Origin: a virus
Strand: one strand, 5' to 3'
IMG/VR virus record: IMGVR_UViG_3300025009_000032
DNA: 44,087 nt
Both the position numbers and the translations under genes were made by a program. Positions 208 through 44,087 of this stretch are shown here, piece after piece. Below the pieces are notes generated by a model. It had not been told where the DNA came from. It ran no database searches and saw only the letters and a list, made by a program, of their open reading frames with translations. Within the stretch, counting starts at the first letter, position 1; every line of letters starts with the position of its first letter.

Positions 208-513
208 ATGAAAAAAGATAGCAAAATGACTTATGACAGCGTGTTATATGCTGTTTGCCCAGAGTGCGGTGGCGATGGGAAAGAAACATGCACAAACCCT
301 GACCACGGGCTAATAAGTGCTTTAAGTTGGCACGATATAGGTAGAATTGGCTGTCCATGCTGTGGGCATGACCCAGACCACAAAGTGCCTAACGGTGGTG
401 AATGCGAGGCGTGCGGTGGGACTGGTAAAATGACCATGAAAGACGCTGAGGAATATGTAAGCGGATATGATTATGAAATAGGAATACAGCCTTTAGGGGC
501 AAATTGCATATAA
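208..513 (+). CDS. Cys-rich protein with DnaJ-type CxxCxGxG zinc-finger-like motifs
   Basis: 101 aa containing CPECGGDG, CPCCGHD and CEACGGTG. Locally much more GC-rich than its surroundings. Confidence 0.6.
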   Translation: MKKDSKMTYDSVLYAVCPECGGDGKETCTNPDHGLISALSWHDIGRIGCPCCGHDPDHKVPNGGECEACGGTGKMTMKDAEEYVSGYDYEIGIQPLGANCI

Positions 514-652
514 CACTTGCATTTAAGTATAAGGTAAGCCGAAGCAATATAAATGAGATAAGAAATTATAAAAAGAGAGTGAAAAATAAATAATATGTTA
601 TAAAACATTTATGTAAAATAATCAACCTATAAATCAATCACTTACAAAAAAC

Positions 653-5527: not shown

Positions 5528-5528
5528 T

Positions 5529-31234: not shown

Positions 31235-31245
31235 TAAGGAAAAAG

Positions 31246-31721: not shown

Positions 31722-31855
31722 AAGAATTAAAAAATTGTAAACACCCAGAAAACACAATCTGCACATGTTGTAATGATTGTTTAAAAGAAAACATTAAAAA
31801 GGCAAAGTTCAGAGTTACTTTGCAAAGTAATATTAATAAATTTTTAAATAAATAG
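31718..31855 (+). CDS. Small Cys-rich protein (45 aa)
   Basis: MKELKNCKHPENTICTCCNDCLKEN... ATGA overlap with the upstream gene. Hand-counted. Confidence 0.4.
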   Translation: MKELKNCKHPENTICTCCNDCLKENIKKAKFRVTLQSNINKFLNK

Positions 31856-31858
31856 TAT

Positions 31859-32299: not shown

Positions 32300-32448
32300 A
32301 AACACATTTAATAAAAAATAAAAGAATATTAGATATGGATGTAACGAAAACCAAATGTGGTTTGCGTGGTGGTGATTTATTAAGAACTGAAAATATTAAA
32401 AAAGTAACATGTAAAAATTGTCTAAGGAAAAAGAATAGGTGTTTTTAA
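32296..32448 (+). CDS. Small zinc-ribbon-like protein (50 aa)
   Basis: KCGLRGG...CKNC Cys pairs. ATGA overlap with the upstream gene. Hand-counted. Confidence 0.4.
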   Translation: MKTHLIKNKRILDMDVTKTKCGLRGGDLLRTENIKKVTCKNCLRKKNRCF

Positions 32449-32460
32449 ACATATTTCTAT

Positions 32461-32504
32461 ATGATAAAAATCATGTTTAAATCAAATTTAAAGTAGTTAC
32501 TTCG
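32461..32504 (+). promoter_or_regulatory. Early promoter with palindromic operator (copy 4 of 5)
   Basis: ATGATAAAAATCAT (32461-32474), 22 nt, TTACTTCG (32497-32504), then CAGAGTAAA. Confidence 0.7.
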
Positions 32505-32566
32505 CAGAGTAAAATTGAGTAAGCCTAATCTCATTAAAATTAGGCGAAATTTAAATATAAGTAAAA

Positions 32567-32704
32567 ATGAAAAAAATTACAGAATTAACAGAGTTAGAAA
32601 TATTGAATCTAACAGAAGAAGAAATCGCATTAAATTTCTTAAATAAAGCATACGGGTTAACCGAAGAAGAAAAAACTTTTGTTTTAGAAAATTACAATAA
32701 ATGA
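32567..32704 (+). CDS. Small acidic protein (45 aa)
   Basis: First ATG after promoter copy 4. Hand-counted 45 codons. Confidence 0.4.
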   Translation: MKKITELTELEILNLTEEEIALNFLNKAYGLTEEEKTFVLENYNK

Positions 32705-32790
32705 TTATCAACAAATTTCAAGAAACCAAAGCAACAGAGGAAGTAAAACGCCTCTTTGCTTTATAAATAGTAACAATTAATATTAAATAA

Positions 32791-33468
32791 ATGGAAAATA
32801 AAACTTTACTACCAAAATTAGCAAATTTATATGAAGACAATATTGAACTTGCGTATAAAAATGATCAGTTCAATGTTTTGATGAATCAAAACCCAAAGCC
32901 TGAATGGGTAAAAATAAATGAATATGCAAATAATTCAAAGTATATTCCAATAGGAATTATCGAAACATTATTGAGCAAAGTATTTAAATCATGGTATCCT
33001 GAAATAATAAGGGAAGGGGTGGCTTTTAATGGTGTGTATGTTGTAATAAGATTGCATTGTTTAGACTTAATGACAAATGAATGGAAACAATATGATGGGA
33101 TAGGAGCAGTGGAATTACAGGTTAAAAAAGGCTCAAGTCCTGCCGAACTTCAGAACTTAAATAAAGGTGCTATTATGATGGCTTTCCCTATGGCAAAAAG
33201 CTATGCAATTAAGGATGCAGCTGAACATATCGGAAAATTATTTGGACGTGATTTAAATAGAAAGGATACTATGTTGTTTGAAGCAGATAAATCAATTATC
33301 AATTCAATTGATGGTATAAATGATGCAAAAGAAAAAAATAGAATTATTGATTTTATAAACAAAGCTACTTCACCTGAGCAGTTACAGCAAATTTCAGAAG
33401 ATATACTTTTGAAATATAATTTAGTAGATTTAAAATGTGATAAATTAAGTGAATTAATAACAGAATAA
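32791..33468 (+). CDS. Rad52/Sak-like single-strand annealing protein
   Basis: YIPIGIIETLLSKVFKSWYPEII...VVIRLHCLD...YDGIGAVE and AKSYAIKDAAEHIGKLFGRDL parallel the Rad52 N-domain signature. Adjacent to the exonuclease gene. Confidence 0.65.
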   Translation: MENKTLLPKLANLYEDNIELAYKNDQFNVLMNQNPKPEWVKINEYANNSKYIPIGIIETLLSKVFKSWYPEIIREGVAFNGVYVVIRLHCLDLMTNEWKQYDGIGAVELQVKKGSSPAELQNLNKGAIMMAFPMAKSYAIKDAAEHIGKLFGRDLNRKDTMLFEADKSIINSIDGINDAKEKNRIIDFINKATSPEQLQQISEDILLKYNLVDLKCDKLSELITE

Positions 33469-33470
33469 AT

Positions 33471-34163
33471 ATGGATGAAATATTAATTAGAGCAAGTCAG
33501 GCTCATAAAATAATGACAGAACCAAAACTAAAATCTGACAAAGAGGCGGGTTTGCTTGGTGAAACATCAAAAACTTATATAAAAGAATTATTTTTATATA
33601 ATGAATTTGGATATAAAGAGCCTTTGTACACACCTCAAATTATGAAAGGTCAGTTATGTGAGCAAGACAGCATGGCATTAGTTCAGGAGGTTTTAGGTGG
33701 CGAATTTCGTACTAAATGCAACGAAAAAAAGAGTAACGAATTTATTTGCGGAACTCCCGATGTTGTTTTAAAAGAAAGTGATTACATTGAAGATATCAAA
33801 ACAAGCTGGGATATTAAAACATTTTTTAATGCAGAGCTTGAAAAATCTTATTACTGGCAGGGACAATGTTATATGGCTTTATTTGGCAAAACAAAATATC
33901 GTTTAATTTATTGTTTGGTGCAAACACCTGAAGAGTTAGTTCGTGAAGAAATAAAGAAATACTTTTTTAAGTTTGGATGCGATGAAATGAATGAGGATTA
34001 TATTACTGTTGAAAATCAAATCACTCAAAATTTTGACATTTCAAAAATAGAACCTAAAAAACGTTTAAGGATATTTGAATTTGATTACAACCAGTCAGAT
34101 ATTGATAAACTTTATTTGCAGGTTAAAAAAGCACGTGAGTATTATAAAACTCTTAAACTTTAA
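33471..34163 (+). CDS. PD-(D/E)xK exonuclease (YqaJ/lambda Exo-like)
   Basis: GTPD ... IEDIKTSWD motif. 230 aa. Paired with the annealing protein. Confidence 0.7.
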   Translation: MDEILIRASQAHKIMTEPKLKSDKEAGLLGETSKTYIKELFLYNEFGYKEPLYTPQIMKGQLCEQDSMALVQEVLGGEFRTKCNEKKSNEFICGTPDVVLKESDYIEDIKTSWDIKTFFNAELEKSYYWQGQCYMALFGKTKYRLIYCLVQTPEELVREEIKKYFFKFGCDEMNEDYITVENQITQNFDISKIEPKKRLRIFEFDYNQSDIDKLYLQVKKAREYYKTLKL

Positions 34164-34166
34164 TTT

Positions 34167-34322
34167 ATGTTAGAGCTAATAAAACTAAAATATGATATTA
34201 ATGAGCTTTTGGAATCATTAAAACTCAGAAATACATTTTTAAAATTAAATAATGTTTCAAAGGAGGAAATTGAAGCAAACGAAAAGGTGATAGATAAATT
34301 AGAATTAATAATAAAATTTTAA
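34167..34322 (+). CDS. Small hypothetical protein (51 aa)
   Basis: Hand-counted ORF that fills the gap. Confidence 0.4.
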   Translation: MLELIKLKYDINELLESLKLRNTFLKLNNVSKEEIEANEKVIDKLELIIKF

Positions 34323-34326
34323 TATT

Positions 34327-34872
34327 ATGGAAATAAAAATATGCAAGTGCTGTAAAAAAGAGTTACAGGCAACTAAAGATAATTTTTATGTTCAGAAAAG
34401 AGGTAAATATGGAGTAAAGGCAATTTGTAAAATATGCGAAAATATAAGACAAAAACAATATAGATTAAAACCAGAATACAGAGAAAAGCATAGAATTCAA
34501 GCTAAAAATTGGAGGAAAAATAATCCAGAAAAGGCATTAGAAATAAACAGAAAATCATTTAATAAAAGAAGACATATATATAATGAAAAAAGAAAACATA
34601 GATACCATAATGATATGGAATACAAGTTAAATAAAGATATTAAAAATAAAATTTATAGACAATCAGAGAAAGGTCAATTAATGCTACATAAAGATAAAAA
34701 TATTACAAATTCAATAGAAAGGAGCAAAAACAATAGGGCAAATTTATCAAAATGTTATATAGCTCAATTGAATAAAATTAGAGTAAAAGACATGAATAAT
34801 GATGAATATGAAATAAAAAAAACAATCATAGAATTAAAAAGAGAATTAAATATTAAAAATAATAAATTTTAA
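34327..34872 (+). CDS. Zinc-ribbon, highly basic putative nucleic-acid-binding protein
   Basis: CKCC...CKIC pairs followed by a K/R-rich repetitive region. Confidence 0.55.
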   Translation: MEIKICKCCKKELQATKDNFYVQKRGKYGVKAICKICENIRQKQYRLKPEYREKHRIQAKNWRKNNPEKALEINRKSFNKRRHIYNEKRKHRYHNDMEYKLNKDIKNKIYRQSEKGQLMLHKDKNITNSIERSKNNRANLSKCYIAQLNKIRVKDMNNDEYEIKKTIIELKRELNIKNNKF

Positions 34873-34875
34873 AAG

Positions 34876-35091
34876 ATGGAAAGAGATTTAAATTTTGAAG
34901 TAAAAACCAGCATCGATTTAAATAAAATGCTTACAGGTTTATTAATGGACGTAAGAAGAGGCGAAGTAGATTACGAAAAAGCAAAGGCAATAACTTTAGT
35001 TGCAGATAAAATAAATAAAAATAATGTTAATGCTTTAGAATATAAAAGAATAACTAAGCATAATAATAATTTATCATTTTTTGAAGAATAA
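34876..35091 (+). CDS. Hypothetical protein
   Basis: 71-aa ORF. Confidence 0.5.
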   Translation: MERDLNFEVKTSIDLNKMLTGLLMDVRRGEVDYEKAKAITLVADKINKNNVNALEYKRITKHNNNLSFFEE

Positions 35092-35139
35092 AATTTTAAA
35101 ATAAACCTCAAAATATTTTTTTAATTAAAAAATAGATAT

Positions 35140-35147
35140 TATCTTTG
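35140..35147 (+). promoter_or_regulatory. -7 promoter box TATCTTTG
   Basis: Matches TAnnTTTG. A T-rich tract lies about 20 nt upstream. Intergenic. Confidence 0.5.
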
Positions 35148-35151
35148 TGCC

Positions 35152-35270
35152 GAAATAAAAAATATATTGTATGCAAACAATCTTAGATTTCACTTTATTA
35201 AAATATACCAATATTAATTGGGGAGTTTTTGGCAGCCTGCATACCTGCATATTTCACTCCCCTTTTTTTA
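35152..35270 (+). ncRNA. Candidate ~115-nt small RNA or leader/attenuator
   Basis: Lies between the promoter box and a terminator: GGGGAGT (35220-35226) pairs with ACTCCCC (35256-35262), followed by T8. The loop holds the tandem CCTGCATA CCTGCATA. No credible ORF. Confidence 0.4.
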
Positions 35271-35288
35271 TTGGATTTTTATTATATT

Positions 35289-35453
35289 ATGAATAAAAAC
35301 AAAGAAATTAAACACAAATTTTGCGACTTTTTCACAAGTAAAATAATCAGAAAAATAGATAAGCAAAACAATACTGATGTTATTAATATGCCACTTCCAC
35401 AGATAAAAGGGTACTTAAAGTGTGCTAAAGTTTCACAATATAAAGATAAATAA
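35289..35453 (+). CDS. Small hypothetical protein (54 aa)
   Basis: First ATG after the terminator. The track ORF from TTG 35229 would read through the hairpin. Confidence 0.45.
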   Translation: MNKNKEIKHKFCDFFTSKIIRKIDKQNNTDVINMPLPQIKGYLKCAKVSQYKDK

Positions 35454-36002
35454 ATGAGAGATTCAACAATTATTTATCGTAGTTTTTATGAAGCAATAAA
35501 AGAATTGCCTAAAAAAAATCAAGCTGACCTATGGGAAGCTATATTTGAATACTCATTAAATTTTAATGAAATTAAATTAATTGGTATTTCTGAAACAGTT
35601 TTTAAATTAATAAAACCGCAACTTGATTCTAACATAAAAAAATATAAAGATGGTTGCAAAGGCAAAGAGTATGGTATTCAGGGAGGTAGACCAAAAAAAA
35701 ATAACCCCACAAGAACCCCACAGAAACCCCACAAGAACCCCACAGAAACCCCTAATGATAATGATAATGATAATGTAAATTATAATGTAAATGAAAATGT
35801 AAATGTAAATATTAATGACGTTATAAAATATTTTTCTTTAAAAGGATATACAAAAGAATCTGCAATAAAATTTTATAATTATTATGAAGCTGCAAACTGG
35901 ATTAATAAAGATGGCAAAGAAGTTAAAAACTGGAAATTAACAGCAGTTCAAGTTTGGTTTAAGCCAGAAAATGAAAAACCTAAAAGTAAATTTCAACCAT
36001 AA
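35454..36002 (+). CDS. Putative replication organiser / initiator
   Basis: Two domains joined by a low-complexity linker encoded by iterons. The C-terminal FYNYYEAANWINKDGKEVKNWKLTAVQVWF resembles phage DnaD-like replisome organisers. Directly upstream of the primase-helicase. Confidence 0.5.
   Translation: MRDSTIIYRSFYEAIKELPKKNQADLWEAIFEYSLNFNEIKLIGISETVFKLIKPQLDSNIKKYKDGCKGKEYGIQGGRPKKNNPTRTPQKPHKNPTETPNDNDNDNVNYNVNENVNVNINDVIKYFSLKGYTKESAIKFYNYYEAANWINKDGKEVKNWKLTAVQVWFKPENEKPKSKFQP
35705..35752. repeat. Iteron array: 4.4 x 11-bp units (CCCCACAAGAA / CCCCACAGAAA)
   Basis: Exact alternation of two 11-mers, equivalent to 2 x 22 bp plus CCCC. Confidence 0.9.
35753..35818. repeat. AT-rich microsatellite-like tract (TAATGA x4, then TGTAAA-type repeats)
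   Basis: taatgataatgataatgataatgtaaattataatgtaaatgaaaatgtaaatgtaaat, immediately 3' of the iterons. Confidence 0.85.
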
Positions 36003-37687
36003 TGGAAAATATCACAGATTATAATTATTTAGGATTTAATCTTAAAGGCAAAACATCTGGGCAAATAAGAACTACTTGCATACATTGTTCACATTTAAGG
36101 AAAAAGAAAACAGACCCTTGTTGTAGTGTTAATTTAGACGATGGGACTTATTATTGTCATAACTGCGAAAAGTCAGGAAGTTTACATAAATTTAAAAGGA
36201 ATAAAGTTGAGGCAATAAAGTATATTATTCCGTTATGGAAAAATAAAACTGAAATACCTGATAAAGTTGTTAAATGGTTTGAAACTCGCAAAATAAGTCA
36301 AAAAACATTGATGGAAATGAAAATAACATACGGCAATGATTATTTTCCTCAAATAGAAAAAGAACAAAGTTGTATTGAATTTAATTATTTCAAAGACAAT
36401 GAACTTATAAATGTAAAGTATAGAACTGGAGATAAATTATTCAAACTTCATAAAGGTAGTGAATTAATATTTTATAATTATGATTCTATTTTAAAAAATA
36501 AAGAAATAGTAATCGTAGAAGGCGAAATTGATTGTTTGAGTTATATTGAAGCTGGCATTAGAAATGTAATTTCAGTTCCTAATGGTGCTAATTTGAATAA
36601 AAACAACCTTCAATACTTAGATAGTTGTATTGATATATTTGATAATATAGATAAGGTCTATTTAGCTACTGACAATGATATTGCAGGTATTAATTTAAGG
36701 AATGAATTAATAAGAAGGTTGGGAAGTGATAAATGCTTTATTGTTGATTTTAATGATTGCAAAGATGCTAATGAATATTTAATTAAATATGGATTATTTG
36801 AACTTAAAAAAACTATTGAATTAGCCACAGAAATTCAAATTGAAGGTATTTTTAAAGTAGAAAATTTTGAGGAAGAGTTAGATGTGCTTTATTCAAAAGG
36901 ATTGCAACCTGGACTAAAGATAGGATTTAATAAGTTAGATAATTTAATTACTTGGGAAAAATCAAAGCTTGCAATAGTAACGGGCATACCTTCACATGGT
37001 AAATCTGAGTTTATAGACCAGATAATTGAAAGATTAAATGCATTACATAAATGGAAATTTGGTATATTTTCGCCAGAATGTTTTCCTATTCAAATTCATG
37101 CTGCAAATTTAATAAGTAAAATAACAGGAAAAGTGTTTAATGAAAATAGGTTAAGCATAGATGAATATTTTGAAGCAAAAAAATATTTAAATGATAATTT
37201 TTATTTTATAAAGCCAGAAGACAGCGGGTATTATTTAGATAATATCTTAACAAAAGCTAAGGTTCTAATTAAAAAGTATGGTATTGATGGATTAATTATA
37301 GACCCGTATAATAGACTTGAACATGCCTTACCTTCTGGCATGCCTGAAACTAATTATATTAGTCAATTACTTGATAAATTAACTAATTTTTCACAGGCTA
37401 ATAACATATTAATATTTTTAGTTGCACACCCTCGCAAGATGTTAAAACAAAAGGGTAATAATTATTATGAAGTTCCAAACTTATATGATATAAATGGTAG
37501 TGCTAATTTTTACAATAAAGCAGACTATGGATTAACTGTTTATAGAAATTATAATTTAGGTGGTATATGCGAGGTACATGTGCAAAAAGTAAAAAGAAAA
37601 AATTTAGGAACTACTGGACTTGTAACATTTAATTATGATATGGATTCAGGAAGGTTTATTGAGCAAGAATTAAATAATGTTTTTTAA
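36002..37687 (+). CDS. Bifunctional DNA primase-helicase (T7 gp4/Twinkle-like)
   Basis: Zinc ribbon CIHC..CHNC, TOPRIM VIVEGEIDCLS..ATDNDIAG, Walker A GIPSHGKSEF, DnaB-type C-terminal domain. Confidence 0.9.
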   Translation: MENITDYNYLGFNLKGKTSGQIRTTCIHCSHLRKKKTDPCCSVNLDDGTYYCHNCEKSGSLHKFKRNKVEAIKYIIPLWKNKTEIPDKVVKWFETRKISQKTLMEMKITYGNDYFPQIEKEQSCIEFNYFKDNELINVKYRTGDKLFKLHKGSELIFYNYDSILKNKEIVIVEGEIDCLSYIEAGIRNVISVPNGANLNKNNLQYLDSCIDIFDNIDKVYLATDNDIAGINLRNELIRRLGSDKCFIVDFNDCKDANEYLIKYGLFELKKTIELATEIQIEGIFKVENFEEELDVLYSKGLQPGLKIGFNKLDNLITWEKSKLAIVTGIPSHGKSEFIDQIIERLNALHKWKFGIFSPECFPIQIHAANLISKITGKVFNENRLSIDEYFEAKKYLNDNFYFIKPEDSGYYLDNILTKAKVLIKKYGIDGLIIDPYNRLEHALPSGMPETNYISQLLDKLTNFSQANNILIFLVAHPRKMLKQKGNNYYEVPNLYDINGSANFYNKADYGLTVYRNYNLGGICEVHVQKVKRKNLGTTGLVTFNYDMDSGRFIEQELNNVF

Positions 37688-37961
37688 AAATAAAATGATA
37701 AAATCAAAACAGTTTACTCAAGAGCAAAAGGAAATGATTTATCCTTGCTATTTGCAACATATAAGTTATAACATGCAAGTAAAATTAATAGACCAGCAAC
37801 GTAGTATTGCAGTAAGGCAAACTCCTTCAGGAGCAGGGTTTAATATAAATTATGAATATTATGGTGGAGGTAATTTATATTTGTATGATAGTAATTATAA
37901 GCCAAGTAATGCAGTTAATTTTAAAGAGTTGTTAAAAATAGGAAATGAGTTTTATAAATAA
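37677..37961 (+). CDS. Hypothetical protein
   Basis: 94-aa ORF overlapping the primase-helicase stop. Confidence 0.5.
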   Translation: MFFKNKMIKSKQFTQEQKEMIYPCYLQHISYNMQVKLIDQQRSIAVRQTPSGAGFNINYEYYGGGNLYLYDSNYKPSNAVNFKELLKIGNEFYK

Positions 37962-37977
37962 TTATAAATGTTAGCAA

Positions 37978-38229
37978 ATGAAAAATAAAGAATTTAGGTT
38001 AGCTGCAAAACTTTTAGAAATGGCAGATGAGGAATTCGGAAATCACGTATGCAATGATGTCTATGAATCATTTTGGGATGGATGGGAAAAAGAAGAAAGA
38101 CAAGAATTTGTAAAACAATATCACGAATGGAACGGCGACCCAGAAGAATTTGACCCAAACTTTTTACTATTGCCAGACTATGCAATAATGGGCTTTTTGG
38201 CTCACAAACTGCGTGTGTTGGCGGATTAA
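37978..38229 (+). CDS. Hypothetical acidic protein
   Basis: 83 aa, W/E-rich, and more GC-rich than its neighbours. Confidence 0.55.
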   Translation: MKNKEFRLAAKLLEMADEEFGNHVCNDVYESFWDGWEKEERQEFVKQYHEWNGDPEEFDPNFLLLPDYAIMGFLAHKLRVLAD

Positions 38230-38281
38230 AAATTTGCGTATAGCAACTGTTATAAATAAGTGTTAAACAACATATTTTATT

Positions 38282-38325
38282 ATGACAAAAATCATTTTAT
38301 GTTAAAATAACAATTTGTAATTTCG
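38282..38325 (+). promoter_or_regulatory. Early promoter with palindromic operator (copy 5 of 5)
   Basis: ATGACAAAAATCAT (38282-38295), 22 nt, TAATTTCG (38318-38325), then CAGAGTAAA. Confidence 0.7.
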
Positions 38326-38399
38326 CAGAGTAAAAATAAGTAATAAAGGAGTAACCTGAAAATCCATAAAGAGTAGGGAAAATTAAAAAAAAATAAAAA

Positions 38400-38834
38400 A
38401 TGGAAGTAGAAAAATTAATTTTTCAGGAAGAAAAAAACCCTGAAAAAAAAGCACAATTAATTAAAGATAATTGTGATGAAGTATTAGAGAATTATTCATA
38501 CACTAAAAAGTTTACCCCTGATGAATTAGATGAATTCAAAGATGAATTATCAGAAGTATCAATTGAAGAAGACAACTTACAGGAGGAGTTAAAAGAGTTG
38601 TCTAAGGGGTTAAAAGAAAAGATTAAACCAAAAAAAGAACAGAAAAAAATCTTATTAAAAAGATTAAGAGAAAAATCAGAAATGATAAAAGATTCTGTTT
38701 ATGTCCTTAAAGATGAAGAAAATTATTGTGTTTATAATTCAGAAGGAGAATTAATTACAAGTAGGAAATTAAAACAAAGTGAAAAACAAAAAACAATTTT
38801 TCAAACAATTAGAAAAACAGGTACAAACAACTAA
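38400..38834 (+). CDS. Hypothetical charged coiled-coil protein
   Basis: 144 aa, E/K-rich. Confidence 0.6.
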   Translation: MEVEKLIFQEEKNPEKKAQLIKDNCDEVLENYSYTKKFTPDELDEFKDELSEVSIEEDNLQEELKELSKGLKEKIKPKKEQKKILLKRLREKSEMIKDSVYVLKDEENYCVYNSEGELITSRKLKQSEKQKTIFQTIRKTGTNN

Positions 38835-38845
38835 AAATCAAACAA

Positions 38846-39556
38846 ATGACAAAAGAAGAAATTAAAATCAATGTTACAAAAGATTGTAACGAGTTAGTAA
38901 TCAGAGAAGGCAAAGCGTTAGAATTAAAAGAGCCAACGCAAGTATCAATTAGTGGAATTATCACAACTATTTTTATATGGCTGTCGATAAGGATAACTGA
39001 AATAAAGCAAAAATCATGCTATATATTGGTTGACAAAGCAAATTTAACAATGAAATTAATAGTTGGTGAGTTGAATTTTTACAAAACAACTATTATTTCA
39101 TCTTTGGAATTATCAAAAGAGTTTATAAAATTTGGTATTAATTCTGAAAAAACATGGGACTGCTTCAAATTGTCTGATTTTATTAAAATGAATCGTAGCT
39201 ACTTTGTTGATAAAGCAAAAGCTATGATTTTAGTTACAGAACTAAGGAATTTCAAAGCTAAAGTTAATAATGAATTGGATAAATTTAAGGACGACAGGGC
39301 AAATTATGAACTAAGAAAAAAGCAAACAGTTGAAAGTAATTTGCCAGATATGTTTCAGGTTTGTATTCCAATATTTAAAGGTGAAGAAAAAATAATTTTA
39401 AATGTAGAAATAAGTATTGACCCAAATACTTTAGAATGTCAGTTTATTTGTCCCGAAGCAACGGACTTTATAAATGAACAAACTGATTTAATTTTTGATG
39501 AACAAATTAAAAAGATTAGTGAAATTACTCCTGATATAGCAATATTATATCAATAA
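38846..39556 (+). CDS. Hypothetical protein
   Basis: 236-aa ORF. Confidence 0.6.
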   Translation: MTKEEIKINVTKDCNELVIREGKALELKEPTQVSISGIITTIFIWLSIRITEIKQKSCYILVDKANLTMKLIVGELNFYKTTIISSLELSKEFIKFGINSEKTWDCFKLSDFIKMNRSYFVDKAKAMILVTELRNFKAKVNNELDKFKDDRANYELRKKQTVESNLPDMFQVCIPIFKGEEKIILNVEISIDPNTLECQFICPEATDFINEQTDLIFDEQIKKISEITPDIAILYQ

Positions 39557-39567
39557 AATAATATAAA

Positions 39568-39594
39568 CAGGGTGGTTAATTCTACCCTGCTTTT
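39568..39594 (+). terminator. Rho-independent terminator
   Basis: CAGGGTGG..TACCCTG hairpin followed by CTTTT. Confidence 0.6.
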
Positions 39595-39617
39595 AAATAA
39601 GTAAATATAATTAAGAA

Positions 39618-39821
39618 ATGGAATATAATCACAAAAATATGACTAAAAAAGATTTTGAAAACTTGAAAAAAGATACTATATGTATCCACAGAGGCGTAGA
39701 ATATTACTGTACAGGGGTTAATTATGCTTCAAACATGGTTCATTTATCTTTTGCAAATAGTAGATTTAGCAACGGATGTGATATATTTGTATATTTTCGT
39801 AATGTTAAAATAAAGAAATGA
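39618..39821 (+). CDS. Hypothetical protein (paralogous 5' end with next gene)
   Basis: 67 aa. GAATATAATCACAAAAATATGACTAAAAAAGATTT is echoed at 39824. Confidence 0.5.
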   Translation: MEYNHKNMTKKDFENLKKDTICIHRGVEYYCTGVNYASNMVHLSFANSRFSNGCDIFVYFRNVKIKK

Positions 39822-40180
39822 AAGAATATAATCACGAAAATATCACCGAAAAAAGATTTAGGGAATTTTTTGAAGAGCTTGGAAATGCTGCGGAAAGATA
39901 TGAAAATGGCAAAAAAGTAATTGTTTATACGCTTCACAGAAAAATAGATAACAATTTCAATCTTTCTTATCATTTAGAATTTCCGCAAAAAAATGTAAAA
40001 TTCAATTTTTGGTTTGAAAAAATAAATTATCTAAATTCAAGAGAAAGTGTAACAATTTCATTTCATAATCCAAATGAACATGGAGTAAACAGGTTAAAAA
40101 GCATATTAAGCACTGATTGCATTAATGAGTTAAAGGCAAAAGTAGATGAAATATTCATTAAATATAGTTTAAAAAGTTGA
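39818..40180 (+). CDS. Hypothetical protein
   Basis: 120 aa. The N-terminus MKEYNHENITEKRF parallels MEYNHKNMTKKDF of the upstream gene. Confidence 0.55.
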   Translation: MKEYNHENITEKRFREFFEELGNAAERYENGKKVIVYTLHRKIDNNFNLSYHLEFPQKNVKFNFWFEKINYLNSRESVTISFHNPNEHGVNRLKSILSTDCINELKAKVDEIFIKYSLKS

Positions 40181-40217
40181 ATAGCAAACATTAAATTTTT
40201 AAAAAATTAGAATATTT

Positions 40218-40364
40218 ATGAGTGATATAATAATATTTATAACAAGTTTAAGCGGATTAGTAATTTCTGTTTATTGCTTACGCCGTATGAAAAAAATAAG
40301 TGATGAAAATAAAAACATATATAAAAAAGTAAATAATAAATATGAATCATGGGAAAAATGGTAG
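40218..40364 (+). CDS. Small single-TM protein (48 aa)
   Basis: IIIFITSLSGLVISVYCL helix. Hand-counted. Confidence 0.4.
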   Translation: MSDIIIFITSLSGLVISVYCLRRMKKISDENKNIYKKVNNKYESWEKW

Positions 40365-40615
40365 CACCATTTAGTAATGCAACAGAAGCTGAAATGTGGT
40401 TGAATCGAAACTGCTATTCGTGTACAACTTCAAAAAATTGTACAGCCTTTAAACATTTAGAAGAAGGTTTTATTTTTGGCGGAATATCTGAAAGGACAGC
40501 ACGTTATATTGGTACAGTAAATATAACGGCTGCGGGTATGGGCTGGCGGCTTTTTCTGCCGCTTGCTTATACCCGTTGTTACCAGCTGGCACGGATTATT
40601 AATAACAAAAGCTAA
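40349..40615 (+). CDS. Hypothetical Cys-containing protein
   Basis: 88 aa. FSNATEAEMWLNRNCYSC.. An alternative start at 40358 overlaps the upstream stop. The last ~28 codons are read through GC-rich element A. Confidence 0.5.
   Translation: MGKMVAPFSNATEAEMWLNRNCYSCTTSKNCTAFKHLEEGFIFGGISERTARYIGTVNITAAGMGWRLFLPLAYTRCYQLARIINNKS
40524..40606 (+). repeat. GC-rich structured element, copy A (hairpin plus L arm)
   Basis: Stem GCGGGTAT (40532-40539) pairs with ATACCCGT (40569-40576). Inner hairpin GGCGGC/GCCGC. The 3' L arm is TGTTACCAGCTGGCAC (40577-40592). Homologous to copy C. Confidence 0.7.
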
Positions 40616-40619
40616 TTAG

Positions 40620-41561
40620 ATGAACGAAACAGTTTTTAATAATTTTTTGAGGGATGGCAAAAACGGCTTGTCCGAAGATTTTAATGTATTATCATTATTT
40701 GATGGTATGAGTTGTGGCCAAATTGCACTTAATAACATAGGGTTGAAGCCTACAAGATATTACGCTGCCGAAATAAAGAAACACGCTATTCAATGCACAT
40801 TAGATAATTTTCCCGATACTATTCAGATTGGAGATGTAACCAAAGTAAATGGCCAAGATTTACCAAAAATAAACTTATTGATTGGTGGTAGCCCTTGCCA
40901 AGATTTTAGTAGAGCAAATAGTGTAAGAGATGGATTGAAAGGTATGAAATCAATGTTATTTTATGAATACATAAGATTACTTGAAGAAACAAAACCAGAT
41001 TACTATTTACTTGAAAATGTGATAATGGATGATTTAGGTTACAATACAATTACTGAAGTATTAGGAACCGAACCAGTAAGATTATGTGGTAGTAAAGTAA
41101 GTGGAGCTTTGAGAGATAGATTATTTTGGACTAATATCGGGCCTGAAAGTTTTGATTTATTTGGAAATAGAAAATGTGCAATACCACAACCGAGAGATAA
41201 AAAAATAATGCTGAATGATGTTTTAGAATACGGATATTCAGATAAGAAAAAGCACACTTGCTTAAATACAAGTTGTGGCCGAGATGCAAACCAAAGATAT
41301 ATGTTGCATAGATACACTACTACTGGAATGACTACCATTATTTACACGGATGAAACAATGGATGAAAGTAAAGGAGTAAGATATTGCACACAAACAGAAT
41401 TAGAAAAACTGCACAATATACCTTTAGGTTATACAAGAAACCTAAATAAAGCACAAGCTGGCAATTTGATTGGAGATGGATGGAGTGTTGGAATAGTTGA
41501 ACATATCTTTTCTTTTTTAAAAGGGGAGGAAAAAAAAATATTTAAAACTGAACCGAAATGA
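40620..41561 (+). CDS. dcm: DNA (cytosine-5)-methyltransferase
   Basis: Motif I LFDGMSCG, motif IV GGSPCQDFS, motif VI LLENV, C-terminal GNLIGDGWSV. No partner endonuclease, so it is an orphan enzyme. Confidence 0.9.
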   Translation: MNETVFNNFLRDGKNGLSEDFNVLSLFDGMSCGQIALNNIGLKPTRYYAAEIKKHAIQCTLDNFPDTIQIGDVTKVNGQDLPKINLLIGGSPCQDFSRANSVRDGLKGMKSMLFYEYIRLLEETKPDYYLLENVIMDDLGYNTITEVLGTEPVRLCGSKVSGALRDRLFWTNIGPESFDLFGNRKCAIPQPRDKKIMLNDVLEYGYSDKKKHTCLNTSCGRDANQRYMLHRYTTTGMTTIIYTDETMDESKGVRYCTQTELEKLHNIPLGYTRNLNKAQAGNLIGDGWSVGIVEHIFSFLKGEEKKIFKTEPK

Positions 41562-41600
41562 TTAATCGAAGAACATCCGTAGTGCTTGCTGGTAACACCT
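41561..41600 (+). repeat. R arm (inverted partial copy of element A 3' block)
   Basis: GTGCTTGCTGGTAACA (41582-41597) is complementary to 40577-40592 at 15 of 16 positions (14 Watson-Crick plus one G:T), with one T:T mismatch. ATTAAT..ATCCG also mirrors 40593-40603. Confidence 0.7.
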
Positions 41601-41697
41601 ACCTACTGCGACCTTGAGATGTTTTGTAAAAACAAGGATAAAAGATATATTAAAATACAATCAATTTGCCCTCCTGACTTTTTAAATTCAATAATAA

Positions 41698-41874
41698 ATG
41701 AAAGAACAAATTAAGCATAATCTAATTAAAACAATATTCTTATTTTTATACATAGGAATATTAACAATTATTAGTTATTATTTATGTACTTACTTGGATA
41801 TTCCAAAATATATGACTTACTTTGTATTTTGTTTTAGTATTTATAGCGGTGTAATGTTTTTTAAAAATGAATAA
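41698..41874 (+). CDS. Small two-TM membrane protein (58 aa)
   Basis: Hand-counted. The stop overlaps the HNH start. Confidence 0.4.
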   Translation: MKEQIKHNLIKTIFLFLYIGILTIISYYLCTYLDIPKYMTYFVFCFSIYSGVMFFKNE

Positions 41875-42199
41875 TATACAGAAGAAATTAGATACTTCAA
41901 CATATTTAAAAGTATGGAATAATAAGCCTCATGAATGCGAAGAGTGCGGTAAATGGTTAGAATATGCAGTTCAAGAAAATGTTATAAAAGATAGGAGTGT
42001 ATTTAGCCATATATTATCAAAAGGTGCATTTCCAGAGCATAGGAACAATGTAGAAAATTTTAACTTACTTTGTTTTGAACACCATCAACAATATGAGTTT
42101 GGAAACAGAAAAAGCATGAAGATATTTAAGAATAATGAGTTAATAATAGATAAATTAAAAAGAAAATATAATAATTTAAAAATTAAATTTTATGAGTGA
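41867..42199 (+). CDS. HNH endonuclease
   Basis: CEECGKWL zinc knuckle, SHILSKG..NNVENFNLLCFEHH (H-N-H). 110 aa, the size of packaging-associated HNH proteins. Confidence 0.8.
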   Translation: MNNIQKKLDTSTYLKVWNNKPHECEECGKWLEYAVQENVIKDRSVFSHILSKGAFPEHRNNVENFNLLCFEHHQQYEFGNRKSMKIFKNNELIIDKLKRKYNNLKIKFYE

Positions 42200-42377
42200 T
42201 AAAAATTCAAATGTAAAACAACTGAGACATGGAACTTTAGAATGGTTAAAAGATTCGCAAGATTTCACATGCAATAAAATTAAAAAAACAGATATAGATT
42301 CAAAGGTAAAACAACTCTTAGATGAAGAGTTGATTGAAAAATGTGAACAAAGTAACGGCTGGCGGTATGGCTTGTAA
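42192..42377 (+). CDS. Hypothetical protein
   Basis: 61 aa. The last 7 codons are read into GC-rich element C. Confidence 0.45.
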   Translation: MSDKNSNVKQLRHGTLEWLKDSQDFTCNKIKKTDIDSKVKQLLDEELIEKCEQSNGWRYGL

Positions 42378-42466
42378 GCCTTGCACTACCACTTCAATTC
42401 CCCGTAATAGCTTCGGCTTATAAGCTATACCGCTTGTTACCTGCTGGGCGGTTTAATTAGCAGGAT
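42354..42466 (+). repeat. GC-rich structured element, copy C (multi-hairpin plus L arm)
   Basis: Stem GGCGGTAT (42361-42368) pairs with ATACCGCT (42427-42434). Inner hairpins are GGCT-TGTA-AGCC (42369-42380) and AGC-TTCG-GCT (42409-42418). The L arm is GTTACCTGCTGGGC (42436-42449). Confidence 0.7.
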
Positions 42467-42482
42467 TTAAAAAAGGAACTAA

Positions 42483-42845
42483 ATGAGTTTAGACGTTTAT
42501 TTAAACAGAAAAAGGTATTTAAGCTACAATGAAGGCAAAACATATACCGAAGATGACGAACAAGTTTACTGGGCAAACATTACCCATAACTTAGGCAAAA
42601 TGGCAGGTGAAGCAGGAATTTACGAAGCACTTTGGCGACCAGAAGAAATTGGAAAAACAAAGGCAAGTGAAATAATTGAATTACTTGAAAAAGGATTGGC
42701 TGACTTAAAAGCAAGACCTGAACATTTTGAGAAATTCAACTCGCCTAATGGATGGGGAATGTATGAACATTTTGTTCCTTTTGTCGAGAAGTATTTAGAA
42801 GCCTGCAAAGTATATCCCGATGCCGTTATCGAAGTGTCAAGGTAG
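42483..42845 (+). CDS. Conserved-looking hypothetical protein
   Basis: 120 aa, relatively GC-rich. NITHNLGKMAGEAGIYEALWRPEE..NGWGMYEHFVPFVEKYLEAC looks like a widespread phage family of unknown function. Confidence 0.65.
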   Translation: MSLDVYLNRKRYLSYNEGKTYTEDDEQVYWANITHNLGKMAGEAGIYEALWRPEEIGKTKASEIIELLEKGLADLKARPEHFEKFNSPNGWGMYEHFVPFVEKYLEACKVYPDAVIEVSR

Positions 42846-42858
42846 CCTTGCAGGTAAC
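42845..42858 (+). repeat. R arm complementary to the copy C L arm
   Basis: GCCTTGCAGGTAAC pairs with 42436-42449: 12 Watson-Crick pairs, one G:T and one T:T, the same geometry as the dcm pair. Confidence 0.65.
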
Positions 42859-42973
42859 TAATGGATATGTTGAAGAGCTAATAGAAAGGTTTAAAAATAA
42901 ATCAATAGTTAATGTTAGGGATTTAAAAACAGAATTAAGTAAAAGAATAATAATTAAAAAAGGAACAGTATAA
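42848..42973 (+). CDS. Possible small ORF with TTG start (41 aa)
   Basis: Reads ..NGYVEELIERFKNKSIVNVRDLKTELSKR.. and ends in a TAATG overlap with the next gene. The start codon is uncertain. Confidence 0.2.
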   Translation: MQVTNGYVEELIERFKNKSIVNVRDLKTELSKRIIIKKGTV

Positions 42974-43404
42974 TGAAACTGCCAGAAGCAATAAAAATAG
43001 TAAAAGAGTATAAAGATTGGAGAGATAATATTATTTTAAATCAAGATGTAATAGGGGAGGTTCCAGTAGGATTAGGTATCGCAATAGATATAGTAATTAA
43101 ATATTGTGAGGAGCAAATAAAAGAATCGGCTAAGTTTGAAAAATTAGTTGATGAGTGCGAAAAATTTACAGGAGTTAGTGAAAAAGATATACGTCCAAAT
43201 CTTTATGACTACATCATGCAAAATGGAAGTACTTTATTAAAAAATAGGGTTAAATGCATTGAAAAAGAATGGTTGAGATTACATGGGGAGATTAACGGAT
43301 ATTTAAAATATATTCAAAAATCAGGATTAGTAAAAGTTCAAGGTATCGGCAAAGCAACTGCAAATGAGTTCATAAGACTTAGAGATGAATATTTAAAATT
43401 ATAA
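42973..43404 (+). CDS. Hypothetical protein with C-terminal helix-hairpin-helix motif
   Basis: 143 aa. VQGIGKATANEFIRLR fits the HhH GIGxxxA signature. Confidence 0.5.
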   Translation: MKLPEAIKIVKEYKDWRDNIILNQDVIGEVPVGLGIAIDIVIKYCEEQIKESAKFEKLVDECEKFTGVSEKDIRPNLYDYIMQNGSTLLKNRVKCIEKEWLRLHGEINGYLKYIQKSGLVKVQGIGKATANEFIRLRDEYLKL

Positions 43405-43407
43405 GAT

Positions 43408-43629
43408 ATGAAAAAATTTTTAATAATAATTAGTGTTGCAATATTTATGTTTATAAGATCAAATTTTATGATATATGAACTTTGTACAATAAATAATTGC
43501 TATAAGAGTATGTGTTATTGGGGTGAAAACTCGCAATTGTTTTTAAATATATTTTTTACAATCACATTAATAATATTATTGACAATAATAGCAATAAGTT
43601 TATTTCTAAATGTAATAGATAAAGATTAA
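43408..43629 (+). CDS. Small membrane protein
   Basis: 73 aa with two hydrophobic helices. Confidence 0.45.
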   Translation: MKKFLIIISVAIFMFIRSNFMIYELCTINNCYKSMCYWGENSQLFLNIFFTITLIILLTIIAISLFLNVIDKD

Positions 43630-43738
43630 AATTATAGGATTAAGCAAATATGGAAAACGGAATAACTCTTGAATAAATTACTTATAACGATAGCATGTAT
43701 GTTTAGTGTGAATTATTAAAAAACAAATTTTATAAATA

Positions 43739-43981
43739 ATGATAACGATTAAGGAATTACAATTAGATGATGCAACAGCATTGAGATTGCTGGAACTGAT
43801 AAAAAAAGAAGAACCTGAAATATGGGAAGTTTTTAAACATGTATTAAAGCAAGCATTAAATACACCTGATGTTAGCGATACTGTTTGCTCTTGCCAAAAA
43901 GCACGATGTAATTACAAAACAGTTAGATTTGGAGGATTGCCAAATTTATGTTCAAACCCTAAAAGAGAAACTATACAATGA
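43739..43981 (+). CDS. Hypothetical protein
   Basis: 80-aa ORF. The last 21 nt lie in the terminal repeat, so its 3' end is also seen at 1-21. Confidence 0.5.
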   Translation: MITIKELQLDDATALRLLELIKKEEPEIWEVFKHVLKQALNTPDVSDTVCSCQKARCNYKTVRFGGLPNLCSNPKRETIQ

Positions 43982-44087
43982 CAGCCAATATTTTAGTATT
44001 ATTAAAATTAAATTAGTATCTTTGTAAAATGAAATTATCAGAATCAGATGTAAAGTATATTAGAGCAAGTAAACTAAGTGACAAAAC
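43961..44087. repeat. Terminal direct repeat, right copy
   Basis: Identical to bases 1-127. Confidence 0.95.

Follow-up and report, generated by a model that had tools for sequence, protein, structure and literature searches.

What is a short inverted repeat doing around a single methyltransferase gene in a phage? The locus lies in a viral sequence of 44,087 nucleotides (IMG/VR record IMGVR_UViG_3300025009_000032), and this whole stretch is referred to here as the window. An earlier note, made from the sequence alone, had pointed out two arms, TGTTACCAGCTGGCAC (40577–40592) and GTGCTTGCTGGTAACA (41582–41597), and had proposed that they bound an invertible segment or close a loop in the mRNA. 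Our analysis shows that a DNA methylase gene has been brought into a gene of a Flavobacteriaceae phage on a mobile cassette of 1,069 bp, whose two ends are marked by the inverted repeat. The cassette belongs to a large integron-like family found in Bacteroidota and their viruses, which appears to be undescribed.

The arms pair as described, with 14 Watson-Crick pairs, one G:T and one T:T, and they enclose one ORF only. Its product is a C-5 cytosine methylase, matching PF00145 in a Pfam search (E = 2.8e-27) and the phrog_116 DNA methyltransferase family (E = 5.9e-39); there is no adjacent restriction gene. The extent of the arms has to be adjusted slightly: the pairing is real, but the conserved part is 15 nt long, of the form GTT...AAC (40578–40592 and 41582–41596), and the outermost T and A vary in relatives. 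The weaker mirrored similarity that had been noted, which lies inward of the arms, is lost in relatives.

The arm pair alone is statistically ordinary: 1.8 kb of sequence contains 69 inverted pairs, of which it is one. Exact inverted 10-mer seeds that are GC-rich and have the arm spacing are not enriched in the window (5 against 4.1 expected), nor are matches in a loose 15-nt GTTA/TAAC scan (49 against 49.5 expected). The pattern GTTAYNNGC followed by the complementary GCNNRTAAC occurs three times in the window, where 0.041 occurrences are expected (maximum two in 1000 simulations). It is only as a member of a family that the arm pair gains significance.

The comparison with related phages suggested in the earlier note proved decisive, as near-identical genomes with an empty site were found. 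Over the sequence that they have in common with the window (up to about 20 kb for L101), three independent assemblies (L101–L103) are 99.95–100% identical to it, and they are without exactly positions 40528–41596. The empty site reads ...ATATAAC|ACCTACC... and leaves intact a small DUF8270 gene, whereas the filled site has the junctions ATATAAC|GGCTG and GGTAAC|ACCTACC. Among the source metagenomes, ENA ERZ27254731 has the filled and ERZ27254811 the empty site; the others are JGI 3300025010 and 3300025087. Empty-site genomes encode the 98-residue protein P0001 and filled genomes the 88-residue protein P0002; excision of the cassette in silico gives a product 100% identical to P0001, which is found on six contigs. 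The alignments of the flanks in filled and empty sequences overlap by exactly 4 nt, TAAC, and the junction is resolved to those 4 nt: the cassette is placed after one TAAC and itself ends in TAAC. A crossover at AA|C (G|TT) is compatible with the junction, placed within TAAC at this 4-nt resolution. The target, ATATAAC|ACC (GGTG|TTATAT on the other strand), lies inside DUF8270 and is a minimal GWT target outside att sites. The polymorphism is therefore one of insertion versus empty site, with exact boundaries.

These boundaries bear on two further statements made earlier. The absence of a target-site duplication holds for the arms themselves, but the actual insertion has a 4-nt direct repeat TAAC (40524–40527 and 41593–41596). 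The mobile unit is also larger than the arm-to-arm span: its first base is 40528, so that 50 nt precede the left arm, and it consists of a GC-rich hairpin, the left arm, dcm and the right arm, in that order (Table 1). The proposal that the arms are functional partners bounding a discrete unit with the orphan methyltransferase was correct. Promoter-like sites are no more frequent in the cassette than in shuffled sequences, and the single terminator-like call in it is the tip of the site hairpin. A Pfam scan of the 78 ORFs in the 44-kb genome identified no recombinase (tyrosine, serine or invertase).

Table 1. Positions of the cassettes and of the interrupted gene in the window. Functional assignments of the arms and of the left site follow the model proposed in the text.
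Feature	Position	Strand	Remarks
5' part of interrupted DUF8270 gene (PF26802)	40349..40527	+	ORF reads into the cassette, stop at 40615, 88 aa
Target tetranucleotide TAAC in the phage gene	40524..40527	+	G|TTA on the other strand; insertion directly 3'
Putative left part of recombination site	40528..40577	+	Unpaired GGCTG (40528–40532), imperfect 18-bp hairpin (stems 40533–40550 and 40558–40575, loop TTTTTCT), then TT
Left arm GTTACCAGCTGGCAC, proposed 3' half of basal stem	40578..40592	+	R'-like box extended to 15 nt; complement of 41582–41596, with compensatory changes
Leader	40593..40619	+	27 nt, left arm to dcm start codon; kept with the cassette in L001–L006
dcm, orphan C5-cytosine DNA methyltransferase	40620..41561	+	313 aa; cassette cargo; PF00145 and phrog_116
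Right arm GTGCTTGCTGGTAAC, proposed 5' half of basal stem	41582..41596	+	R''-like box; terminal TAAC is the right cassette end
3' part of interrupted DUF8270 gene	41597..41714	+	In frame with 40349–40527 after removal of 40528–41596
Second full cassette, same family	42357..42858	+	Site 42357–42435 after TAAC 42353–42356; left arm 42436–42450; 120-aa ORF 42483–42845 (phrog_4019); right arm 42844–42858
Arms-only pair GTTATATGCTGTTTG/CAAATTGCATATAAC, same design	243..514	+	No upstream hairpin; inside ORF 208–513

The dcm cassette also occurs elsewhere. In six other viral contigs (L001–L006), homology to the window is limited to about 40522–41597 and the flanks are unrelated; at the right arm the homology ends at 41596, which is also the end of the insertion. 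The left hairpin travels together with dcm in L001, L002 and L004–L006. Homologues of dcm were found in at least 15 distinct right-flank contexts, and dcm keeps one orientation relative to the arms and hairpin throughout its more than 20 independent contexts. Within the dcm lineage the arms covary: A7T in L003 is accompanied by T to A in the partner arm and C9T in the L012 group by G to A, while the L007 group has the arms GTTGCCAGCAGTACT/AGTATTGCTGGCAAC. In L003, dcm and its arms sit behind another hairpin, the one that is also present at positions 3026–3103 of L301, a locus with a cassette array. This swap counts against the cassette model, because one crossover at AA|C does not account for it.

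When the right arm, the hairpin and the left arm are joined end to end, they give an 80-nt site that folds as one long imperfect hairpin, similar to a folded integron attC site. As single-stranded DNA this junction has a predicted energy of –29.1 kcal/mol (z = –9.65), compared with –24.2 kcal/mol for the complementary strand, and the fold of 40528–40577 has –38.3 kcal/mol on the + strand and –26.1 kcal/mol on the – strand. The predicted folds have a central spacer with 3–5 unpaired nucleotides on the 5' side (GGCTG, GGTTG or GTTTT) and 1–2 on the 3' side, and an inner stem that contains symmetric mismatches and G·T pairs and no clear single-base bulges or extrahelical bases. The structure is strand-asymmetric, and the asymmetry arises from G·T pairs: among sites found by the hairpin alone, there are 201 on one strand and 5 on the other. 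Arm position 11 is G:T in 146 of the 181 unique arm pairs of array cassettes.

The pairing of the arms is specific to each cassette. Among the hairpin-found sites, the left arm pairs with the right arm of its own cassette at 10 or more of 12 positions in 65 cases out of 143, compared with 7 out of 142 for arms paired across a site and 4 out of 104 for pairing with the next cassette. Every site has TAAC ... GTTA at its flanks. Arm positions 1–3 are GTT/AAC in all 183 pairs, a count in which these triplets were part of the search pattern; the presence of GTT/AAC in the outer boxes is however supported independently by the insertion and homology boundaries.

Cassettes of the same design form dense tandem arrays adjoining Xer-like tyrosine recombinases. 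We found 378 arm pairs in 80 recombinase loci, compared with 108 in shuffled sequences, and many of these loci have an array beside the recombinase. The L145 locus has four cassettes in an array that ends at a tyrosine recombinase gene, and roughly 50 nt separate the last cassette of L301 from the start of its recombinase. The physical association of cassettes with Xer-like recombinases is thus clear. The site between cassettes has a median length of 115 nt. In 164 of the 172 array cassettes, as in the window, the presumed folded ("bottom") strand carries the ORF, and the site is 5' of it. The same site and arm design is found in at least 11 bacterial cassettes and in the L145 array with cargo genes that are antisense to the strand of the G·T pairs. 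Since the bacterial copies keep the design with their cargo on the opposite strand, the structure is a feature of the DNA and is not bound to a transcript.

The array-linked enzymes consist of SAM-like and catalytic domains, and their best structural matches are XerA (4a8e) and IntI4 (2a3v). An array recombinase matches NF040815, "tyrosine recombinase/integron integrase", with 244 bits (cutoff 220), and its nearest solved structure is the integron integrase of V. cholerae, 2a3v. The L145 enzyme scores 243 bits against TIGR02249, which is under the cutoff of 265, and aligns with IntI4 in two pieces, skipping residues 205–246 of 2a3v, which we take to be the IntI-specific domain; the alignment of the L292 enzyme with the XerA-like 4a8e runs from end to end. 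The L145 and L111 recombinases have an extra N-terminal region of about 100 residues, and the L301 recombinase is minimal at 266 residues. On the basis of these alignments, the array recombinases appear to lack the IntI-specific insertion near patch III. This counts against an integron model, because the insertion is regarded as essential for integron function.

Most matches in a pattern scan of bacterial genomes were due to chance and came from unrelated phyla; about 25 copies passed a filter for the full architecture and are genuine, essentially all of them in Bacteroidota. Rfam searches at the gathering threshold and at E ≤ 10, which covered the window, the region itself and 30 loci where copies are clear, left the site unmatched, and no tRNAs were found, so that a tRNA-like origin is unsupported. 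A megablast search with 39500–42500 for close phage relatives gave no match, and a distant blastn search with two variants of the site against 50,697 deposited phage records found a fragment resembling the left arm in one uncultured phage only. A literature search with the string GGCGGTATGG retrieved only unrelated primers.

The window contains only two hairpin-type sites, one of them the hairpin at 40528–40577. The second full cassette (Table 1) folds in a comparable way, its circularised junction having a predicted energy of –28.8 kcal/mol as single-stranded DNA (z = –6.5). The region upstream of the arms-only pair is unstructured (z = –1.29), and this pair is possibly a degenerate cassette.

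We consider it likely that the cassette is of the integron type and is moved by a recombinase of the Xer/IntI type. Its recombination site would be specific to one folded single strand, with each arm providing one half of the basal stem. In the free circle, the right arm (...TAAC), about 5 unpaired nucleotides, the inner hairpin, 2 nucleotides and the left arm (GTTA...) would together form a long imperfect hairpin, with GCTGGTAAC|GGCTGCGGG as the circle junction in this model. The recombinase would cut beside AA|C on the folded + strand, and the cut strand would be joined to double-stranded DNA at a minimal target, G|TT(A), which in this phage was the TAAC within the small DUF8270 gene. Joining would linearise the circle and leave the right arm beyond the cargo, at a distance of about 1 kb, and hence produce the inverted repeat around dcm. 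Since the phage has no recombinase of its own, we infer that a recombinase of the Bacteroidota host acts in trans during infection. The folding strand, the enzyme and the circular intermediate are proposed here from the sequence comparisons, as is a benefit against restriction: dcm is read in the same direction as all the phage genes, and plausibly protects phage DNA from host restriction.

Several other explanations were weighed. The mRNA loop proposed in the earlier note can be extended to an RNA-level element, in which the arms would close a loop in the dcm mRNA for RNase III-like processing or stabilisation and the cassettes would spread because such self-contained expression units recombine well. 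This fits with an ORF on the strand of the G·T (G·U) pairs in the phage and in almost all array cassettes, with the better folding of the + strand, and with the location of the arms in the 5' leader and right after, or overlapping, the stop codon. The cassettes in bacterial chromosomes and in the L145 array that carry antisense cargo speak against such a role for the arms, whose ends are recombination junctions. A role in RNA would predict neither that the limits of homology and insertion fall at the arm ends and TAAC nor the tight association with recombinase genes, and no Rfam family matches; we therefore regard it as improbable, although the arms may have an additional effect at the RNA level in the phage.

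IS200/IS605 elements and their transposase-less derivatives move in a strand-specific, hairpin-guided manner and insert 3' of a tetranucleotide with no duplication and a seamless empty site; the target of IS608 is TTAC. A PATE-like, transposase-less element of the HUH (Y1) "peel and paste" kind, inserting 3' of TAAC, would account for the fixed tetranucleotide in which the element also ends, for the absence of any further duplication, and for the strand-specific structure, the seamless empty site and the subterminal hairpin at the left end. However, here there is one local hairpin, the right end having none, and the ends pair over a long range. TnpA/HUH is absent from the window and from the ten ORFs inspected in bacterial loci (eight cargo and two nearby recombinases); the arrays instead adjoin tyrosine recombinases, and tandem single-gene arrays are not known as a trait of the IS200/IS605 group. 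The chance of such an element is even slimmer than that of an RNA element.

A third alternative is that the hairpin and arm motifs are passive linkers, providing short homologies for homologous or illegitimate exchange between co-infecting phages, a mechanism like that suggested for PeSL cassettes in T4-type phages. Many unrelated contigs do share the left motif TAACGGYTGNNGGTATGG, and the hairpin swap in L003 could come from homologous exchange. The insertion site in the window nevertheless shares only TAAC with the cassette, and homologous exchange leaves the covariation of arms within cassettes, the conserved G·T and the linkage to recombinases unexplained, which makes this the least probable of the three. 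Finally, an invertible segment, in which recombination between the arms would flip dcm away from the + strand transcription to give phase-variable anti-restriction, has the inverted repeats around one gene in its favour, as well as relatives of the array recombinases that include invertases (although as weak NCBIfam matches far under cutoff), but can be virtually dismissed, as the window has no recombinase, the orientation of dcm is constant in all its contexts, the polymorphism seen is one of presence and absence, the arms vary between cassettes and have a fixed mismatch or wobble unlike invertase sites, and the hairpin and TAAC are left unexplained as boundaries.

Two further candidates were rejected. 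A self-splicing intron was considered, as excision of 40528–41596 restores the ORF; neither a group I nor a group II signal was detected at E ≤ 10, the non-coding sequence (about 92 and 35 nt) leaves too little room for an intron, and the empty allele is present at the DNA level. A MITE or TIR transposon does not fit with arms that differ and covary, a left boundary 50 nt outside the left arm, and a sole repeat, TAAC, that is shared with the end of the element.

If the integron-type model is right, the locus provides direct natural evidence that a single-gene, integron-type cassette can enter the genome of a virulent-type phage through a minimal secondary site. The earlier evidence for off-site insertion comes mainly from the laboratory, and attC sites in phages have been inferred from static genomes. 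Standard integron surveys report almost nothing for Bacteroidota (PMC9024848). The hundreds of cassettes in the loci examined here indicate a large cassette pool in this phylum, and its absence from such surveys may be explained by the non-canonical recombinase and site. Phage cargo is rich in DNA methyltransferases, both C5 and DPPY-type N-MTases, which suggests a route for the rapid exchange of counter-defence genes between phages. The site would also represent a structural variant of structure-specific recombination, with a long basal stem present only in the excised circle and strand asymmetry provided by G·T pairs. More tentatively, and with the balance of probability somewhat against it, the family may form a separate Bacteroidota/phage branch of integrons, with an Xer-like enzyme that has no IntI domain, a cassette-specific stem of about 15 bp formed in the circle only, strand choice by G·T pairs and the ORF on the folded strand, a pool that virulent phages would tap through host enzymes for anti-restriction methylases. 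The window would then be one such event, caught as a live insertion/empty-site polymorphism.

In comparison with known systems, the cassettes most resemble those of integrons. Each unit has one mostly promoterless ORF; the site, like attC, is an imperfect palindrome with AAC/GTT in the outer boxes, an unpaired spacer and strand-asymmetric folding; the junction is AA|C (G|TT), and the first integrated bases complement the box at the other end; and tandem cassettes lie beside a tyrosine recombinase. There are also clear differences, some of which weigh against the integron model. The basal stem here is about 15 bp long and cassette-specific, whereas that of integrons is 7 bp and semi-conserved; a near-fixed G·T at position 11 is found in place of recognisable extrahelical bases; and the linked recombinase has no IntI-specific insertion. 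The hairpin precedes the ORF on the coding strand in the phages and in most arrays, whereas the canonical site is 3' of the gene, an arrangement seen here only in the L145 array and in the bacterial copies with antisense cargo. IS200/IS605 elements differ in having an HUH transposase where the present arrays have a neighbouring tyrosine recombinase. Xer resolves chromosome dimers at dif, whereas the enzyme here is at the end of gene-cassette arrays. The array-linked enzymes resemble Xer-type recombinases and the "integron-like" YR subgroup of Smyshlyaev et al. (2021, PMC8138268), and fall in the simple YR group, where the insertion typical of IntI is "not fully conserved". Integrases are able to insert cassettes at GWT sites outside att sites, termed "attG" (Loot et al., bioRxiv 10.1101/2022.09.11.507474), and the insertion in the window is similar to isolated SALIN/CALIN cassettes at such attG sites: it interrupts a gene at a minimal GTT target, and there is no integrase in the vicinity. 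Clusters of attC sites that lack an integrase occur in virulent phages, one of them a phage of Polaribacter (Flavobacteriia), with methyltransferase cargo for which an anti-restriction benefit has been proposed (Qi et al., 2023, PMC9892861). The sites of Qi et al. were found with canonical attC models and are recombined by IntI1; here, natural filled and empty alleles are seen in near-isogenic genomes.

The inverted repeat described in the earlier note is present as TGTTACCAGCTGGCAC (40577-40592) and GTGCTTGCTGGTAACA (41582-41597); of its 16 positions, 14 form Watson-Crick pairs, one is G:T and one is T:T. The single ORF between its arms is a C5-cytosine methyltransferase gene, dcm (PF00145, E 2.8e-27; also phrog_116), with no restriction gene adjoining it. 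The arm pair by itself is statistically ordinary: 69 inverted pairs, this one included, occur within 1.8 kb, and the window contains 5 GC-rich exact 10-mer inverted seeds at the same spacing, compared with 4.1 expected. It is set apart by its GC content (the genome is 28.6% GC) and by an 18-bp GC-rich local hairpin directly upstream.

Six unrelated IMG/VR contigs carrying dcm (L001-L006) share nucleotide homology with the window limited to approximately 40522-41597; comparison of 38500-44087 gave no match to them beyond this. Base-level alignments place the right boundary at 41596, the final C of GGTAAC. The left boundary is the TAAC just 5′ of the upstream hairpin in L001, L002 and L004-L006, and precisely the left (L) arm in L003. 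Within the dcm lineage (approximately 85% nucleotide identity) there are compensatory differences between the arms, and L003 has a compensatory double change (A to T in the left arm, T to A in the right); the right flanks represent at least 15 different contexts. The cassette is mobile as a discrete unit and has moved into many contexts.

In-silico excision of 40528-41596 fuses an 88-aa ORF (40349-40615) in frame with a small ORF (41586-41714), giving a 98-aa protein whose coding sequence overlaps the next gene at its 3′ end. A protein 100% identical to this product over 98 aa (P0001, PF26802/DUF8270) is encoded on 6 contigs, and the truncated 88-aa form (P0002) on 5. L101-L103 are three empty-site contigs; two of their source samples are JGI samples and the third is from ENA. 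On either side of the cassette they match the window at 99.95-100% identity, in L101 over window positions 30349-40527, 41593-44087 and 1-7754. They are without exactly 1,069 bp, and the flanking alignments share a 4-nt overlap, TAAC. The empty site reads AAATATAAC/ACCTACC and the filled site AAATATAAC/GGCTG...GGTAAC/ACCTACC, which places the insertion 3′ of TAAC, with the cassette ending in its own TAAC. The dcm cassette is therefore a live presence/absence polymorphism within one phage population. The earlier note had suggested this comparison of related phages; the polymorphism that it revealed is the presence or absence of 1,069 bp and not a flipped dcm, and so lends no support to the proposed inversion switch.

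Features of the two complete cassettes in the window
Feature	Position	Strand	Content
Target	40524-40527	+	TAAC
Unpaired bases	40528-40532	+	GGCTG
Imperfect hairpin	40533-40575	+	
Dinucleotide	40576-40577	+	TT
L arm	40578-40592	+	
27-nt leader	40593-40619	+	
dcm	40620-41561	+	
20-nt stretch	41562-41581	+	
R arm	41582-41596	+	
Second complete cassette	42353-42858	+	TAAC, 79-nt hairpin site, L arm GTTACCTGCTGGGCG, R arm AGCCTTGCAGGTAAC

With the cassette ends brought together, as they would be in a circle, the right (R) arm, the hairpin and the L arm are predicted to form one continuous imperfect hairpin in single-stranded DNA (-29.1 kcal/mol, z -9.65; complementary strand -24.2). Since the joined ends fold in this way, the arms would constitute the basal stem of a composite site split by integration: as modeled, the inverted repeat around dcm is the split basal stem of the folded site of an integron-like cassette.

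The window contains three occurrences of the strict motif GTTAYNNGC with a complementary GCNNRTAAC, at 243/514, 40578/41596 and 42436/42858; the expectation is 0.041 and the maximum among 1000 simulations was 2. The hairpin 5′ of the third pair, TAAC/GGCTGGCGGTATGG...TATACCGCTT/GTTACC, resembles the dcm hairpin, with compensatory stem changes, and for both the + strand is predicted to fold better. A detector based on the hairpin alone found exactly two sites in the window, those of the dcm cassette and the third pair, both on the + strand (shuffles gave 0.34 per strand). The third pair belongs to the second complete cassette, whose cargo is a 120-aa ORF of unknown function (phrog_4019); the 61-aa ORF upstream (42192-42377) extends into its site, as at the dcm locus. 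This cassette is found in dcm-filled and dcm-empty genomes alike. An HNH-endonuclease-like ORF between the two cassettes (41867-42199; phrog_20279, phrog_144) is present in both alleles and therefore lies outside the dcm cassette. The pair at 243-514 has family-type arms (13 Watson-Crick pairs and one G:T, with TG/TT at positions 10-11), is without an upstream hairpin, and lies inside ORF 208-513, which encodes a small CxxC-rich protein; the pair could represent either a cassette that has decayed or a gene into which one has been incorporated.

A scan of IMG/VR with TAACGGYTGNNGGTATGG found many genuine copies in unrelated viral contigs, with several apex variants and an upstream context that differs each time, always ending in TAAC. 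Tandem cassettes occur in L001 (three) and L002 (two). In viral contigs the arm sequence is particular to each cassette, and the two arms of a cassette are complementary to one another apart from a mismatch or wobble at positions 10-11. Each cassette carries a single sense-oriented ORF, whose stop codon is often the TAA within the terminal TAAC. The cargo includes dcm, DPPY-type N-methyltransferases (contigs L001 and L018), a C5-methyltransferase-like ORF (L062) and many small ORFs. In L018 (2463-3856) the N-methyltransferase cassette is directly upstream of a dcm cassette, and the methyltransferase appears to have a GIY-YIG-like ORF (KSGIYQI...YIGSA) either inserted in it or fused to it; such an arrangement would place a homing-endonuclease gene within a cassette. 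Among deposited phage records, the sole match to site plus L arm is in an uncultured 635-kb phage (LR745206.1, 590446-590480), approximately 900 bp upstream of its own dcm homologue (591392-592249, 39% identity).

A scan of bacterial genomes returned mostly noise; filtering for the full architecture left approximately 25 genuine copies, essentially all from Bacteroidota. Their sites are branched and 115-135 nt long, and their arms form 13-14 Watson-Crick pairs plus one G·T. Their cargo, encoded antisense to the G·T strand of the site, includes an N6/N4 methyltransferase (748 aa), Fic/DOC, RDD, an ABC ATPase, an HNH nuclease and peptidase S41; cassettes with larger cargo are isolated or arrayed (L111, L134, L135, L145, L153, L183, L192, L194, L205, L209 and L213). 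Group II introns (Rfam RF00029, RF01998, RF01999, RF02001) lie within 1.5-5 kb of cassette sites in two Bacteroidota loci (L117 1501-4072, L183 4064-5920), a situation reminiscent of group IIC-attC introns, which target the attC sites of integrons.

L145 is a four-cassette array with a tyrosine recombinase gene at its end (Phage_int_SAM_4 and Phage_integrase domains). On NF040815 'tyrosine recombinase/integron integrase' the recombinase reaches 244 bits, above the cutoff of 220; on TIGR02249 'integron integrase' it reaches 243 bits, below the cutoff of 265. At 80 viral-contig loci with relatives of this recombinase we found 378 arm pairs, compared with 108 in shuffles, in dense arrays that end right at the recombinase gene; the arrays are physically linked to Xer-like recombinases. 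The 181 unique arm pairs include every one of the four Watson-Crick pair types at positions 5-9 and 13-15, and 146 of them have G:T at position 11; the inter-cassette site has a median length of 115 nt, and in 164 of 172 cases the G·T strand carries the longest ORF. This set had been chosen by pairing, and the test was therefore repeated on sites detected by hairpin alone, which lie on the recombinase strand in 201 cases and on the other in 5. At least 10 of the 12 variable positions of the L arm pair with the R arm of its own cassette in 65/143, compared with 7/142 for the R arm across the site and 4/104 for that of the next cassette: the arms covary within the cassette. The predicted folding of the cassette sites is strand-asymmetric: in the recombinase locus L301, whose 266-aa recombinase gene begins approximately 50 nt past the last cassette, the + strand folds better at every site, the exception being 1282-1380, a weak gap region which does not qualify as a hairpin site. 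Cargo is antisense in isolated chromosomal copies and L145, and sense in phage and IMG/VR array copies. Site structure is thus independent of cargo orientation, which argues against the mRNA loop also proposed for dcm.

The attC bottom strand, whose 5′ arm carries the cut AA/C, suggests by analogy that the + strand would be the one that folds and recombines; a circular cassette intermediate and a host recombinase acting in trans would complete the process, and dcm may protect the phage against restriction. The large terminase shares 34-40% identity with its counterparts in Croceibacter, Riemerella and Cellulophaga phages, which makes a host in Flavobacteriaceae, within Bacteroidota, plausible. 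A 78-nt hairpin site is common to L003 (3880-3957, 5′ of dcm) and L301 (3026-3103, 5′ of an unrelated 281-aa ORF), and the window dcm hairpin is a different one, of 50 nt. Hairpins can therefore be separated from, and re-assorted with, arm-ORF-arm units, an uncoupling that is not predicted by a single AA/C crossover.

We note that the sole Rfam hit above gathering in the window is a DUF805b RNA (RF02914, 38346-38379; 37 bits vs 35.6), approximately 20 nt upstream of ORF 38400-38834; Bacteroidota locus L194 also has a DUF805 RNA hit (3349-3419). The window termini (1-127 and 43961-44087, mapped via L101) are identical over 127 nt, indicating a circularly closed, complete assembly of approximately 43.96 kb with assembler overlap.

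An integron-like cassette carried the orphan methylase into a phage gene. The likeness to integron cassettes comprises a structured, strand-specific site, AAC/GTT outer boxes, an unpaired spacer, a proposed cut at AA/C, and an integrated cassette whose first bases are complementary to the box at the opposite end. The array-linked recombinases, unlike integron integrases, are without the IntI-specific insertion: the L145 recombinase aligns with IntI4 (2a3v) in two pieces, skipping residues 205-246, which we take to be that insertion, and the recombinase of locus L292 aligns end to end with the XerA-like 4a8e. The insertion is regarded as defining and essential (PMC9668308, PMC8138268). Strict integron membership is departed from also in the basal stem, which is approximately 15 bp and cassette-specific, and, in phages and most arrays, in the placement of the ORF, which shares the folded strand with the site and lies 3′ of that site. 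No extrahelical bases are evident in the predicted folds of these sites, and the strand asymmetry seems to be carried by the G·T wobble. Surveys with IntegronFinder record hardly any integrons in Bacteroidetes (PMC9024848), and we found no published description of this type of cassette site in the part of the literature covered. The 44-kb genome of the window contains no recombinase, and the cassette's target is a minimal G/TTA inside a gene, in agreement with what Loot et al. (bioRxiv 10.1101/2022.09.11.507474) described as 'attG' insertions (consensus GWT) and isolated 'SALIN' cassettes. It also agrees with the report by Qi et al. (PMC9892861) of methylase-carrying attC clusters in virulent phages, among them a phage of Polaribacter. 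The element is thus of a known kind, an integron-like cassette; what appears to be new is the Xer-like enzyme, the long cassette-specific stem with its G·T mark, the ORF on the folded strand, and the distribution across Bacteroidota and phages.
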